Shown here: positions 3,992 to 10,770 of the stretch, piece after piece
How positions within the stretch are numbered: the first letter of the stretch is position 1
Layout of the letters: every line of letters starts with the position of its first letter
Sequence record: OP114733
DNA: 64,000 bases
Direction: 5' to 3' (one strand)
From: Escherichia phage vB_EcoM-pEB20
Made by a program: the position numbers and the translations under genes
The notes under the pieces: generated by a model
Seen by the model: only the letters and a program-made list of their open reading frames with translations
What the model was told of the DNA's origin: nothing
The model's database searches: none

Positions 3992-4065
3992 GGCCCTGTA
4001 GCTCAACGGTTAGCAGCAGTCCCCTCATAAGGGAAAGGTTACCAGTTCGAATCTGGTCTGGGTCA
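3992..4065 (+). tRNA. tRNA with CAU anticodon (Met or Ile2/lysidine type)
   Basis: Acceptor stem GGCCCTG/CTGGGTC, T-arm ACCAG-TTCGAAT-CTGGT, anticodon loop CTCATAA; no encoded CCA; D and anticodon stems each have one mismatch. Confidence 0.7.
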
Positions 4066-4071
4066 TATATT

Positions 4072-4148
<77 letters not shown>

Positions 4149-7011: not shown

Positions 7012-7614
7012 ATGCGAAACCAAAATAATGATATTGACTCAATGTTCGAAGAGTTCCGAGATAAGGTAAATCCACCTACGTCTTTAGTTGATTCATTACG
7101 ATATGTTGCAACCGGACGTAAATGGTACTGGTCGTCTTCTTATGAGACCGCCGAGAAAACGGCTAGCCATAGCAGAAAATCTTTATTAGCCCCAGGTATT
7201 ATGATTCATGATATCGGAGCTATTGCTAAACTAGTTGCAGACCATGATATTAGATTCACTGATTTCGTTGCTCCTACGTGGTCTGTTTGTTGTTTAAACA
7301 CTGAATGGGAATATATCAGCGAACGCTCTGAAGATTATTATGGTTTTAGAGATAAGCTTCTGAGGTCTAATATGTTTTATATCGATACAGAAGTTCTAGT
7401 CGATAATAAAAAATATTACTTTACGTTAATCATCGATTCTGAAACTATGTATGAAGGCAAGCCTTTGCTTAAAAGAGTTGATGCTTTAAGTGCTATTGAT
7501 GCGCTTTATGAAACTATGGTTGTTAGTCCTAATTTCACTAACAATTTAATCCTTGAGCAATTTATTATGGAATGTAGAGAATATGTCAAAGCCAACCCTA
7601 TACATGCCAAGTAA
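7012..7614 (+). CDS. hypothetical protein, C-terminus carries the QFIMECR motif
   Basis: 200 aa from ATG 7012 with AAGGAG SD; C-terminal motif shared with four membrane proteins. Confidence 0.6.
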   Translation: MRNQNNDIDSMFEEFRDKVNPPTSLVDSLRYVATGRKWYWSSSYETAEKTASHSRKSLLAPGIMIHDIGAIAKLVADHDIRFTDFVAPTWSVCCLNTEWEYISERSEDYYGFRDKLLRSNMFYIDTEVLVDNKKYYFTLIIDSETMYEGKPLLKRVDALSAIDALYETMVVSPNFTNNLILEQFIMECREYVKANPIHAK

Positions 7615-7978
7615 GCCCTGGGCATACGAATACAAACGTAAATTAATCCCAAATGAAGTACTATTTGGCCCTATTTTAGCTTTAGCATTTTTAATCTTTA
7701 TGATTATAGGAGCTATTTTAGATTCTAGTGAAGTTATATCGTCTGATGCAGTGTTTTTACTTATTATAGTCGGGTCGTTTATTGTGCCATTTTTATTAAT
7801 GCCTATTAATTGGGTAGGATATTGGCACCAAGGCCGTCATCACAGAGCCCGATTAAGAGAATGGAAAGTTCAGTGCGCAAAAGCCCAAGCTCAGTATGAT
7901 GAAGCTGTTAAAAAGTATGAATATGAAGAAGCTATGGAATTCGTTAAGGAAATAAGATGCAAAAGCCTCAACTCTTAA
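7583..7978 (+). CDS. membrane protein of the [NR]FI-x-EC-R C-terminal family
   Basis: Two predicted TM helices; C-terminal EFVKEIRCK; start uncertain (7583 or 7604). Confidence 0.5.
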   Translation: MSKPTLYMPSKPWAYEYKRKLIPNEVLFGPILALAFLIFMIIGAILDSSEVISSDAVFLLIIVGSFIVPFLLMPINWVGYWHQGRHHRARLREWKVQCAKAQAQYDEAVKKYEYEEAMEFVKEIRCKSLNS

Positions 7979-8316
7979 CCGTATGGCCTTCTCTTGGTGA
8001 GAACATTCTAATTTTTATTATGAGTATTGGCATGGGATTTGCCTTTGGATTAGTTGGATTTCTTATTGACGGCGTTGTGTTAGGATTTATAGGGAACACT
8101 GGTGGATTCACAGACCAATGGCAGGACTTACGATATACTCAAGCCTTTGCATCCATTGCATCATTTTGTACTATAGTCTATTTTTACTACGATTTTATAA
8201 ACCATAACAAGAAAAATAAAAAGGTTTACGCTTCTCAAATGATTAGTTATAATGAACTCCTAGCTAGACGTGAAAATGAAACAATCGAAAACTTTATTAA
8301 GGAATGTAGAAAATGA
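7957..8316 (+). CDS. membrane protein of the NFIKECR C-terminal family
   Basis: 119 aa, TM segments, C-terminal ENFIKECRK. Confidence 0.55.
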   Translation: MQKPQLLTVWPSLGENILIFIMSIGMGFAFGLVGFLIDGVVLGFIGNTGGFTDQWQDLRYTQAFASIASFCTIVYFYYDFINHNKKNKKVYASQMISYNELLARRENETIENFIKECRK

Positions 8317-8618
8317 GTAAGATTATTGAAATTAAAGTACCAGAGTTTAATGATGCCAAATCCGCTTCAGATGCAATTTATAAACTTCTGAATCAAGCTG
8401 AACGTATCGAAGAAGAAGCAACAAAGATCGCAGACCAATATGCCGTATCATTTTCTGTAGGTGATTATGGTAGCGGTCGTACTTATTATCCTAAGGGTGA
8501 AATCGTATCCCAGTGGATGAAAGATGAAATTGAAAATAATGGTGGCGATGTTAAGCGTGAAGGTAATGGTTACGTTATTACTGAAGGTGCTTGGGTTTCG
8601 TCTTCTGCGTTGTGCTAA
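8313..8618 (+). CDS. small protein, paralog 1 of GWVSSSxxC family
   Basis: 101 aa ending GAWVSSSALC. Confidence 0.55.
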   Translation: MSKIIEIKVPEFNDAKSASDAIYKLLNQAERIEEEATKIADQYAVSFSVGDYGSGRTYYPKGEIVSQWMKDEIENNGGDVKREGNGYVITEGAWVSSSALC

Positions 8619-8627
8619 GGAATCATT

Positions 8628-8900
8628 ATGTCTAAAGAACAAACCGAACTGGCTGAAGCTGTAGCAAAAATCTATGCAGCTATTGAGGCTGCCAAAGAAA
8701 TTGCTGATAAACAAAACACAACATTCGACTTGTACCCAGCTTATGGTATGGGTGGAACCTATCATTCACCCGGACATCTTAAAGCCGATCTTGAACGTTG
8801 TACAAAAAACGGCTATGCTGAATGGGCTGACGTTTACCAATACGACTACAACCTGAGCCTTGAAGATGGCGGTTGGGTTGCATCTTCTCACACTTGCTAA
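8628..8900 (+). CDS. small protein, paralog 2 of GWVSSSxxC family
   Basis: 90 aa ending GGWVASSHTC; junction TGCTAAGGAA gives SD for itself. Confidence 0.55.
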   Translation: MSKEQTELAEAVAKIYAAIEAAKEIADKQNTTFDLYPAYGMGGTYHSPGHLKADLERCTKNGYAEWADVYQYDYNLSLEDGGWVASSHTC

Positions 8901-8909
8901 GGAAACAAT

Positions 8910-9107
8910 ATGTCTCGTGAATTAGATTGTGCTGTACGTACGGCAGTAGCTGCTCTGGAAAACCTGTTCCAAATTGCAACAGAAGAACGCGAAGAAGTTA
9001 CATTATGGATTGAAGATAACGCAGGTCTGAATCTCCAGGACGCGATCTCATTATCCCACAATAGTATCACTGTTCAAGGCTGGGTATCATCTAGTTATTC
9101 TTGCTAA
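8910..9107 (+). CDS. small protein, paralog 3 of GWVSSSxxC family
   Basis: 65 aa ending QGWVSSSYSC. Confidence 0.5.
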   Translation: MSRELDCAVRTAVAALENLFQIATEEREEVTLWIEDNAGLNLQDAISLSHNSITVQGWVSSSYSC

Positions 9108-9111
9108 AACA

Positions 9112-9148
9112 GTTTACAACAAGATAGGGCTATGTTATAGTAGTCCTA
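9112..9148 (+). promoter_or_regulatory. early promoter in IR ATAGGGCTA..TAGTCCTAT (PeSL-like)
   Basis: GTTTACA 9112, -10 TATAGT 9136. Confidence 0.55.
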
Positions 9149-9169
9149 TCAAAACAAATGGAGTCCACA

Positions 9170-9409
9170 ATGATTTATTACGAAAGTATCGGAACCAAAG
9201 TGGTTGGTAAAACCATTACTCGTGAAAAGTTTGCAAAGATATTCGATATGCGTTATAAAAAATCTGAACACAAAGGCATCCGATTCGAAGATGCGCACTG
9301 TACAATTTGCCCTTATAATGAAGACATAAACGGTACAATCGTTCCATTGGTAGAGGCTTCACATGATGACCTCTGGGATGAATATGATATCGCATGTCGT
9401 GAAATTTAA
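9170..9409 (+). CDS. hypothetical protein
   Basis: 79 aa from ATG 9170 (GGAG SD 6 nt upstream). Confidence 0.5.
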   Translation: MIYYESIGTKVVGKTITREKFAKIFDMRYKKSEHKGIRFEDAHCTICPYNEDINGTIVPLVEASHDDLWDEYDIACREI

Positions 9410-9437
9410 GTTAATGAATTAATCCGAGGAAAATATT

Positions 9438-10394
9438 ATGATGTTGGTTATTGGTTCTCGTGCACTTCACTATCACGGTCTTATTGATTCTAGCGCTATT
9501 AAAAATAGTGATTGGGACTTTATTGCGGACCAATGTTCTTGGAATGCATTCAAAAATCAAATGATGGGTGTATATGTTCACCAAGATAACCCTGATGTCC
9601 AAGTTTTCAAATGCTTCCATAATGGACGCGAAACTCATTTTGAAGCATATATTGTTCCGGCAATCACTAATGTCCGTGAATTAGTCGGTGAACTCACTCC
9701 TGAAGATTTCACGTCTTCTTATGACCTTTTAAAATACGCCAAGAAAAATTTGACTAAAGACCGTTTGAACGGGTTTTACTGGGCAACTCCTGAGATATGT
9801 CTTGCAATTAAGATGTCTCATCGTTTCAAGAAAAATAATCCATTCTTTTTAAAGACTATGAACCATATTCAGTATCTTCGTGGTAAAGGTGTTACACTGG
9901 ACGATGAACTTACTGAAATTATGCTGAAACGCCAGAAAGAAACCTTGAATTATGCTCACCCAGTTCTTGACACTTCTAAAAGTGCGTTCTTTAAAGATGA
10001 CATCTATACATATGACCATGATACTATTCATGAAGCCATTGCACTAACAGACCGTCCAGCGTATACATTTTACATGAAAGATGGTTCTGAAGTCATGACC
10101 TCACGCGAGAAGTTCGAATCATTACCAGAAATGGTCAAATTGGCTGGTGTATACGAAGAATCATGTGTACTAGCGTTAGAACGTTCTCAGATTCCTAATA
10201 ACTTTGAAATCCATCCACGTGATAGTTTTATGATGGCTCTTGAAAAGGTCTGTACTTCAATCACATCAGGTTGGTTCCGTGAATACGCCTGGGAAAACCA
10301 CAGCAAAGTAGTAAGTATGTACCAAAGCTTAGGACATGACGATTACGTCAAACGTTTCAAACAAAATTTCCATATGGTAAAACCTTTCAAATAA
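9438..10394 (+). CDS. hypothetical protein with weak nucleotidyltransferase-like N-terminal motif
   Basis: 318 aa; VIGSRALHYHG...SDWDF resembles the G[SG]...D-x-D NTase signature; unverified. Confidence 0.55.
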   Translation: MMLVIGSRALHYHGLIDSSAIKNSDWDFIADQCSWNAFKNQMMGVYVHQDNPDVQVFKCFHNGRETHFEAYIVPAITNVRELVGELTPEDFTSSYDLLKYAKKNLTKDRLNGFYWATPEICLAIKMSHRFKKNNPFFLKTMNHIQYLRGKGVTLDDELTEIMLKRQKETLNYAHPVLDTSKSAFFKDDIYTYDHDTIHEAIALTDRPAYTFYMKDGSEVMTSREKFESLPEMVKLAGVYEESCVLALERSQIPNNFEIHPRDSFMMALEKVCTSITSGWFREYAWENHSKVVSMYQSLGHDDYVKRFKQNFHMVKPFK

Positions 10395-10406
10395 TTTCGC
10401 AAAACT

Positions 10407-10444
10407 GTTTACATCTTGATAGGACTATGTTATAGTAGTCCTAT
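10407..10444 (+). promoter_or_regulatory. early promoter in IR ATAGGACTA..TAGTCCTAT (PeSL-like)
   Basis: GTTTACA 10407, -10 TATAGT 10431. Confidence 0.55.
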
Positions 10445-10464
10445 TAAAACATGAGGAGAATATT

Positions 10465-10770
10465 ATGAAATTAGGCGAAACCAACCGAATTGGTCTTTTA
10501 ACAATATTTGTATCACTTTTTTACGCAGCTCTTTCTGTTGCAGTATTACAAAAGGCTTACAGTATGGATGGTGTTCCTGGTTTTGTATTCTTATCGCCGT
10601 TTTTGCTATTCGTTGGAGCATTGTTATTATATGCCACGACTAGTTTCGACCATAATGTCTGGGTCAATTATAAATGTAAATTGTCTGAAGAAGAACACGC
10701 AGAAGCTCGTAAAAAAGCTATTGAATCTACCAATCTAGAAAATTTCATTAAAGAATGTCGAGGAAAATAA
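10465..10770 (+). CDS. membrane protein of the NFIKECR C-terminal family
   Basis: 101 aa, two TM helices, C-terminal ENFIKECRGK; SD GAGGAG. Confidence 0.55.
   Translation: MKLGETNRIGLLTIFVSLFYAALSVAVLQKAYSMDGVPGFVFLSPFLLFVGALLLYATTSFDHNVWVNYKCKLSEEEHAEARKKAIESTNLENFIKECRGK

Follow-up and report, generated by a model that had tools for sequence, protein, structure and literature searches.

Three tandem small phage proteins with a near-invariant Ser/Cys tail belong to a large phage family linked to a Pol-beta-type nucleotidyltransferase

Three consecutive small open reading frames (ORFs) at positions 8313-9107 of a 64,000-nt stretch of DNA from Escherichia phage vB_EcoM-pEB20 (sequence record OP114733), an RB69-like T4-type phage of the genus Mosigvirus, encode products that finish on almost the same residues, and the locus raises the question of what these proteins are and what the shared ending does. 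The stretch was analyzed at its full length and is called the window below. The original prediction, drawn from the nucleotide sequence, held that the ORFs arose by tandem duplication, share a helical N-terminus and a nearly invariant C-terminus, and might undergo modification, metal binding, or thioester chemistry at a conserved Cys. Here we report that they belong to a large phage-specific family of small acidic proteins whose genes lie upstream of, and on the same strand as, the gene for a Pol-beta-type nucleotidyltransferase (NTase). The explanation we favor, with belief and doubt about evenly balanced, is that the family forms a two-part module with this single enzyme and that the tail engages it.

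The three ORFs were found within 8313-9107 with the predicted lengths of 101, 90, and 65 aa, each starting with ATG (Table 1), in a region (7900-9500) that is 99% identical in phages MM02, APCEc01, and JK36. As proposed, all three end in W-V-[S/A]-S-S-x-x-Cys followed directly by a stop codon. The Cys had been described as last or second-to-last; it is last in all three ORFs and second-to-last in none within the window, and a few distant members of the family have one residue after it. Six-frame translation of the window gave the strict tail motif in these three ORFs only. From residue frequencies, ~0.001 matches would be expected by chance, and shuffling the window 300 times produced one. The helical N-terminus is borne out for ORF1 by an AlphaFold2 model (predicted local distance difference test score, pLDDT, 89.5) with a helix at residues 15-43, and for ORF2 and ORF3 a helix is suggested by the alignment alone. 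ORF3 has kept the N-terminal helix region and the tail and has lost the Y-G-x-G-x-T-Y loop.

BLASTP between the pairs (E = 7e-5, 1e-3, and 1e-3) identified the ORFs as paralogues, and PHROG profiles agreed, with ORF1 (E = 1.3e-22) and ORF2 (E = 4.8e-19) matching phrog_899 and ORF3 matching phrog_4882 (E = 7.7e-37). Each has a 1:1 orthologue in the Dhakavirus IME08, at 67%, 53%, and 60% identity, versus 26-44% for the non-orthologous IME08 copies; the orthologue of ORF2 is IME08 orf122, itself annotated as similar to RB69 ORF137c. Pairwise similarity and the PHROG hits together bear out the proposed duplication. Because the orthologues persist across genera at 53-67% identity, the paralogues are maintained separately, and because the NTase is 74% identical between the same genera, they evolve faster than the enzyme.

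The conserved junctions that had been pointed out are also present, each consisting of TGC TAA, a 9-nt spacer, and ATG, with an AAGGA Shine-Dalgarno-like sequence spanning the stop codon; as far as sequence can be read for this, they are compatible with the translational coupling proposed. The ATG of ORF1 overlaps the TGA stop of an upstream e.3-like ORF (ATGA). All three paralogues share one reading frame, and the copies are separated only by TAA and three sense codons, so that stop-codon readthrough would fuse them. Three or four copies in frame with one another occur in Dhakavirus loci (e.g., L017 2872-3882; L numbers designate the loci we surveyed), and in other lineages the small-gene copies overlap and lie in different frames. 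In the RB69 reference, the first paralogue (RB69ORF139c; P0002, 71 aa) ends early after residue 68 (...SQWYEK); the intact 101-aa version occurs in the window and in about 130 other Mosigvirus records. The truncation looks like a frameshift, due either to a sequencing error or to loss of copy 1 in the laboratory strain.

A profile made from the three ORFs and four homologues was searched against 1.84 billion cluster representatives. At least 217 representatives (50% identity clusters) were recovered at E <= 1e-3, nearly all of them 65-175 aa long and ending in G-x-W-x-[S/A/P]-S-S-x-x-C-COOH, a handful with one extra residue. The homology search that the original prediction had suggested as a check thus returned a broad family bearing the C-terminal motif almost throughout. 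In an alignment of 148 members, the Trp and the terminal Cys were each conserved at 100% and the second and third Ser at 100% and 95%, with a mean column identity of ~19% across the family. Next best conserved were an I-A-D-E stretch at the helix end and a Y-G-M-G-G-T-Y-Y-P loop. The same alignment gave a median length of 87 aa and a median net charge of -8, and in about half of the members the C-terminal Cys is the only one. Family members were also found in Myxococcus phage Mx1 and Xanthomonas phage XbC2. Some members bear extra N-terminal domains of 60-90 aa, and no fusion or extra domain hinting at function was seen among the long members or 210 homologues. Pfam, NCBIfam, and PADLOC scans of the three ORFs gave sub-threshold noise only. 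The phrog_899 and phrog_4882 entries, like the Pfam entries for the enzyme (DUF7277 and DUF7275), record no function, and none of them unites these subfamilies of small proteins or links them to the enzyme.

The tail could also be thought to arise at the level of RNA, the ORFs not being genes and the repeated TGCTAAGGA junction or a structured RNA mimicking a protein motif. Two of the three tails do have a stop codon that overlaps the ribosome-binding site of the next gene, but the third tail has the same motif with no ribosome-binding site after it. Among 107 distinct tails from other phages, all six Ser codons (TCN and AGY) are used at the invariant Ser positions, Cys is encoded by both TGC and TGT, and the stops are TAA, TGA, and TAG; an Rfam scan gave no match. 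Because of this codon diversity and the lack of an Rfam match, an overlapping conserved RNA element, named in the original prediction as what would explain the motif away, is ruled out as its source, and the tail motif is selected at the protein level. With at least 217 diverged homologues and a confident structural model also against it, the RNA explanation retains a vanishingly small probability.

A second subfamily of about 74 aa occurs in the same upstream arrays (L018 3893-4117, L006 3649-3873, and about 40 other ORFs). It has a similar layout, with an internal D-W-x-S-S-S-C-Y-G-E and a shorter terminal W-x-x-S-S-C, and was missed by the hidden Markov model (HMM) of the family. The position of its W-x-S-S-S-C directly before Y-G-E hints at a single site made up of the Gly-rich loop and the Ser/Cys tail. 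T4 tk.1 (L105, about 10346-10534) has weak local similarity to the pattern "helix end, F-x-F, Y-G...T-Y-Y" (HMM E 0.007, over all T4 ORFs); it has no Ser/Cys tail and may be a remnant or a chance match. One metagenomic member of the tail family (P0302, 112 aa, on 34 contigs) was labeled "seryl-tRNA synthetase" by JGI (Joint Genome Institute), a label that is almost certainly spurious.

The linkage to the NTase first appears in phages well removed from the window. Klebsiella phage FKP3, a Justusliebigvirus from another subfamily, encodes an NTase with 57% identity directly downstream of at least four tail-motif ORFs. Four distant metagenomic members of the small family were chosen regardless of context; three are followed by a DUF7277/DUF7275 gene, either directly or after one intervening gene, and the fourth comes from a contig of 3 kb. 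For the reverse test, 80 IMG/VR viral loci were picked through the 318-aa NTase alone, and tail ORFs were detected by a regular expression and an HMM in stop-to-stop ORFs. Tail-motif ORFs were present in 71 of the 80 loci, and all 147 of them lay upstream of the NTase on the same strand, 45-2859 nt away. Among ~9,000 downstream or opposite-strand ORFs (>=35 aa), none had the tail motif. The loci are partly related by descent, which was handled by clustering the enzymes at 80% identity: a strict-tail ORF lies upstream in 45 of 51 clusters, variant tails are found in most of the remaining ones, and only the lineage L059/60/64/84 is clearly without small genes.

Strict-tail copies number 0 (9 loci), 1 (29), 2 (18), 3 (14), or 4 (10) per locus, and up to 5 when relaxed tail variants are counted, so that the copy-number variation for which comparative genomics had been suggested is evident. 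From the NTase to the nearest small gene, the gap has a median of ~350 nt and is 100 nt or less in 16 of 72 loci. The pair lies between e.3 and e.2 in Mosigvirus, beside nrdD in Tulanevirus, and between genes 41 and 61 in Acinetobacter Lazarusvirus; it is also found in Justusliebigvirus, in Pseudomonas Otagovirus (4-5 copies), and on jumbo-phage contigs. Neither the small family nor the NTase occurs anywhere in the T4 genome, where e.3 abuts e.2. Of 50,697 phage genomes on deposit, 733 have the NTase, which also occurs in 2,221 protein clusters. When bacteria and archaea were scanned with one genome for each species, only five contigs of metagenome-assembled genomes were returned (2-167 kb), four of them with tail ORFs upstream, and we suspect these to be mis-binned phage DNA; the module is distributed in lytic phage genomes only. 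A literature search found no paper on the small family, the NTase, or their linkage.

The linkage bears on the reading that the small proteins function independently, whether by mimicking or inhibiting host proteins with their acidic surface, by binding a metal or a nucleotide at the Gly-rich loop and Ser/Cys knob, or as disulfide-linked oligomers, and that the NTase merely shares a mobile accessory cassette with them. They resemble many anti-host proteins in being acidic, small, phage-only, and encoded in a hypervariable early/middle region; a Cys found only at the C-terminus in about half of them would allow intermolecular chemistry, and the 74-aa subfamily motif hints at loop and tail making one site on the small protein itself. 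Set against this are the directional linkage of every tail ORF, its recurrence in 45 of the 51 enzyme clusters, and the joint absence from T4, in unrelated phage families with differing neighbors. We judge an independent function very unlikely, and it is probable in our view that the small proteins are functional partners of the NTase.

The 318-aa enzyme matched Pfam DUF7277 (E 1e-27, 96.7 bits) and DUF7275 (E 4e-78, 261.9 bits; cut-off 27). Its AlphaFold2 model has a pLDDT of 91.8, and G6-S7, D25-x-D27, and E69, invariant in 36 homologues, constitute a Pol-beta nucleotidyltransferase signature. The helical C-terminal domain has further invariant residues at K125, H128, K139, H194-D195, H198, E240-E241, E248-R249, and C272. 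The predicted fold is bilobed and of the MenT type; the nearest folds are MenT toxins and ANT(2'')/LnuA nucleotidyltransferases, all of which transfer a nucleoside monophosphate to a hydroxyl group. Model and alignment together thus depict an NTase fold with its catalytic motifs intact. The Pfam scan gave only the two domains above and no AbiEii/DUF1814. In a profile search of PDB sequences, no chain of MenT or AbiEii came up, and the one match, to the KEN region of RNase L, was not significant (E 0.097).

NTase relatives in actinophages keep the catalytic core, lack C272 and several basic residues, and have no small genes upstream. In Acinetobacter phage Meroveus (L097 2786-3446), three upstream members have degenerate tails (...SWSPSSESY, ...NWSNSES, and ...TWYNSSESC), and the NTase keeps C272 and all catalytic residues and has Tyr at position 243. 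The NTase of Stenotrophomonas phage IME13 (L005 4498-5393) lies downstream of a single small gene and is split over three tblastn pieces; the annotation covers no more than a fragment of 168 aa, which points to a pseudogene or sequencing errors. T4 NrdC.10 and NrdC.11 were considered as relatives and showed no similarity. A link to arabinosyl-hydroxymethylcytosine DNA modification, prompted by the mention of a nucleotidyltransferase in a paper on phage Thanatos, was also considered and dropped; that pathway uses homologues of RB69 ORF052/053c instead.

In 13 of 59 loci, drawn from several lineages, transfer RNA genes are found no more than 5 kb from the NTase, a raw count that is suggestive only. 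In the T4-like locus L036 (3615-4567), a seven-tRNA cluster takes the place of the small genes directly upstream of the NTase, and no small genes are there. Further loci with tRNA genes near the NTase are L099, L101, L086, L011, L037, and L038, and L101 also has a gene resembling that of transfer-messenger RNA.

How might the two parts work together? The module would be transcribed in the early/middle period, and its paralogues would be translated serially through the coupled junctions. Each paralogue would engage the NTase by its constant helix and tail, with the tail in the catalytic cleft and a Ser hydroxyl, or the thiol or carboxylate of the terminal Cys, placed as the acceptor nucleophile. 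In the event of transfer, the tail would become covalently nucleotidylated and the small proteins would be acceptors matured by a single enzyme; with no transfer, the same geometry would let the tail fill the acceptor site and make the small proteins pseudosubstrate inhibitors. The fast-evolving remainder would give each paralogue its own target or role.

We lean slightly toward the tail as the element that engages the NTase, because it is kept by every member including ORF3, which has no central loop, because it consists of nucleophiles (the hydroxyls of two Ser plus the thiol and carboxylate of the terminal Cys) anchored by a Trp, and because the relatives of the NTase all use hydroxyl acceptors. 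What it conserves are nucleophilic Ser and Cys residues, where a docking motif would typically have hydrophobic or charged ones. The separate maintenance and faster evolution of the paralogues favor one enzyme with several clients or adaptors over one toxin with one antitoxin. Leaning slightly toward transfer, we advance only tentatively, and with more doubt than belief, the further idea that the small proteins are covalent acceptor substrates through the tail. Several enzymes provide a parallel: MntA polyadenylylates its partner HepT on Tyr, GlnE and GlnD nucleotidylate Tyr, and a Ser on a small acidic carrier protein receives a nucleotide-derived prosthetic group from CitX or MdcG. Linkage to an NTase makes the chemistry originally proposed for the terminal Cys more plausible.

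Several observations weigh against an engagement of the tail by the NTase as just described. In the ORF1 model, W94-S96 form a beta-strand and residues 97-100 a short helix, so that the invariant Ser could merely cap a turn and the Trp could be a core residue, although the structure of the tail was read from a single AlphaFold2 model built on a shallow alignment. NTase homologues with no small genes exist, in the lineage L059/60/64/84 and in the actinophage relatives, and at least there the enzyme must have another substrate. The MenT toxins, its nearest relatives in structure, modify the 3' ends of tRNA and not proteins (PMC10435456), and tRNA genes are found near the NTase in the loci counted above. 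A hairpin, a promoter-like site, and an extra ORF also intervene between the triplet and the NTase gene in the window, and together with the median gap they make the coupling look looser than in usual enzyme-substrate or toxin-antitoxin pairs.

The main rival draws on the same structural relatives. According to it, the NTase modifies the 3' ends of RNA or tRNA, and the small proteins, like the antitoxin MenA1, hold it off non-covalently via the helix, with or without the tail, until its activity is called for, and receive no nucleotide themselves. MenA1 itself is a 68-aa long-helix antitoxin, encoded immediately upstream of its toxin, that blocks the active sites by binding (PMC10435456). Here too, every small gene is upstream and on the NTase strand, and the products begin with a long helix; they are strongly acidic, as for a nucleic-acid mimic; some NTase lineages work with no small genes; the NTase has a MenT-like fold; and tRNA clusters adjoin it in several unrelated lineages. 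However, three to five diverged paralogues separately conserved for one enzyme are more than a single antitoxin needs, and gaps, intervening genes, and a separate promoter-like site precede the NTase. The best-conserved element is the Ser/Cys tail and not the face of the helix, whereas the C-terminus of MenA1 is dispensable (PMC10435456) and has no invariant W-x-S-S-S-x-x-C tail. The NTase also has the canonical D-x-D rather than the S/T-x-D of the MenT toxins (T39/D41 in MenT1 and S78/D80 in MenT3; PMC10435456), and the module is confined to lytic phages. On balance we consider inhibition of this kind unlikely, if less so than the other rivals.

The multiplicity of the small genes would be accounted for more directly if they encoded specificity adaptors, each docking on the NTase by helix and tail and using its variable body to recruit a tRNA, an RNA, or a host protein for nucleotidylation. 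A constant motif with a fast-diverging remainder, multi-copy arrays with 1:1 orthologues across genera, a single highly conserved enzyme per array, and the extra N-terminal domains of some members all agree with such a role. No member has a recognizable target-binding domain, though; 29 of the 80 loci have a single copy, and an invariant Ser-Ser-x-x-Cys would be odd in a motif for docking alone. We give adaptors a correspondingly low probability.

In its outline, the favored module of NTase and small tailed proteins is a variant of an "NTase + small partner" theme that includes MenAT1 and HepT-MntA, and it lacks the sequence and motif features that define either of them. Its likeness to MenAT1 lies in a small long-helix protein encoded upstream on the same strand; differences from MenAT and AbiE are D25-x-D27 in the enzyme, the lack of an AbiEii/DUF1814 match, one to five diverged partner genes instead of one antitoxin, looser spacing, and the phage-only distribution. 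Like HepT-MntA, the module pairs a minimal NTase bearing GS...DxD with a small partner protein. In HepT-MntA the NTase places nucleotides on a side-chain hydroxyl of the partner, which by analogy is the chemistry we would favor here. Unlike HepT, the partners here have no conserved R-x4-6-H motif and gave no HEPN-like fold hit; unlike MntA, the enzyme adds the large helical DUF7275 domain with invariant His, Asp, and Glu of its own, and gene order and copy number differ as well.

CitX and MdcG attach their nucleotide-derived group to an invariant Ser of a ~100-aa acidic protein, and the small acidic proteins with an invariant Ser near the NTase recall the substrates CitD and MdcC. Neither the small ORFs nor the NTase matches these systems in Pfam or NCBIfam, however, no precursor synthase of the CitG/MdcB type was noticed near the locus, and the invariant Ser here lies in a C-terminal tail that ends in Cys. 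Ubiquitin-like and ThiS-MoaD proteins differ in that the small proteins have a long helix and a small sheet with no beta-grasp hit, and a C-terminus of x-x-Cys rather than Gly-Gly. Arrays for ribosomally synthesized and post-translationally modified peptides, such as lanthipeptides, similarly have tandem diverged small genes with a shared Ser/Cys motif and a single adjoining enzyme gene. In contrast to their leader-core peptides, the proteins here are 65-175 aa long and predicted to be folded, the conserved part is the C-terminal site itself, and the enzyme is an NTase, with no LanB, LanM, LanKC, or radical-SAM (S-adenosylmethionine) enzyme among the neighboring ORFs scanned. We found no precedent for the W-x-S-S-S-x-x-Cys knob, for arrays of one to five partners, or for an exclusively phage distribution.

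A more far-reaching version, which we think decidedly unlikely, is that the NTase performs a previously undescribed post-translational maturation and that the tail chemistry is categorically new. In one form, a tail Ser would be O-nucleotidylated, the leaving group eliminated, and the product attacked by the terminal Cys to give a lanthionine-like ring; in another, the NTase would install a nucleotide-derived prosthetic group on the tail.

Table 1. Positions of the triplet, its parts, and the surrounding features in the window
Feature	Position	Strand	Description
Promoter-like site	8225..8253	+	TTTACG-17-TATAAT; consensus scan, 10/12 matches; inside the 3' end of the e.3-like gene
Paralogue 1 (ORF1)	8313..8618	+	101 aa; ends ...GAWVSSSALC*; matches RB69ORF139c; phrog_899
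Parts of paralogue 1	8313..8618	+	helix 15-43; Y-G-S-G-R-T-Y-Y-P loop; small beta-sheet; tail W94-V-S-S97-S98-A-L-C101
Tail motif of paralogue 1	8592..8615	+	WVSSSALC
Junction 1	8619..8627	+	TGC TAA GGAATCATT ATG; 9-nt spacer GGAATCATT; AAGGA Shine-Dalgarno-like sequence spans TAA
Paralogue 2 (ORF2)	8628..8900	+	90 aa; ends ...GGWVASSHTC*; A-Y-G-M-G-G-T-Y loop; phrog_899
Tail motif of paralogue 2	8874-8897	+	WVASSHTC
Junction 2	8901..8909	+	TGC TAA GGAAACAAT ATG; 9-nt spacer GGAAACAAT; AAGGA spans TAA
Paralogue 3 (ORF3)	8910..9107	+	65 aa; ends ...QGWVSSSYSC*; matches RB69ORF136c; phrog_4882
Tail motif of paralogue 3	9081-9104	+	WVSSSYSC
Hairpin	9123..9150	+	after paralogue 3; 10-bp stem with one G-U pair, 8-nt loop; overlaps a second promoter-like site (9113-9141; consensus scan)
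83-aa ORF	9158..9409	+	matches RB69ORF135c; phrog_3723; between the array and the NTase gene
NTase	9438..10394	+	318 aa; matches RB69ORF134c; DUF7277 and DUF7275; phrog_2141; starts 330 nt after ORF3

The remaining features of the window are collected with the triplet in Table 1. In the nearly identical phage SA79RD, the annotation places a T4-type middle promoter at roughly the equivalent of the promoter-like site before ORF1. The hairpin after ORF3 is an annotated terminator in SA79RD and was not called by our terminator scan, there being no T-run after it. Homologues of the 83-aa ORF that follows were found in 12 of 85 loci, from Mosigvirus, Dhakavirus, and a few related T4-type loci, with a conserved ...RFEDAHC...PY.E... 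stretch. We considered this ORF as a fourth family member and rejected it, there being no BLASTP similarity and the single linking hit coming from out-of-frame N-terminal extensions; it is at most a possible part of the module. Upstream of the e.3-like gene, the homologue of the e.4-like ORF (7553-7978) in Shigella phage JK36 is annotated "sulfurtransferase," a label that looks unsupported, as a Pfam scan of the ORF gave no sulfurtransferase domain and only a weak LapA-like membrane hit. Transfer RNA genes in the window number just two, Met-CAT and Arg-TCT (3992-4148), about 4.2 kb upstream of the triplet; for its close relative JK36, the annotation lists ten in the matching region.

Both the small family and the NTase are currently annotated only as hypothetical proteins, and since T4 has neither part, classical phage genetics may never have met the module. 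One NTase with an array of proteins carrying an invariant Ser/Cys knob makes a concrete hypothesis that can be tested cheaply. The outcome could be a new protein modification, a toxin/antitoxin-like phage circuit, or a new way for phages to manipulate host or phage tRNAs, and any of these would bear on host takeover and counter-defense in therapy phages, among them those of Mosigvirus, Dhakavirus, Karamvirus, and Slopekvirus. Should maturation of the tail prove true, the arrays would yield effectors or carriers that react covalently and are directed at different host targets, and they would represent a new class of enzyme-matured phage proteins that is widespread in T4-like, phi92-like, Otagovirus, and jumbo phages.

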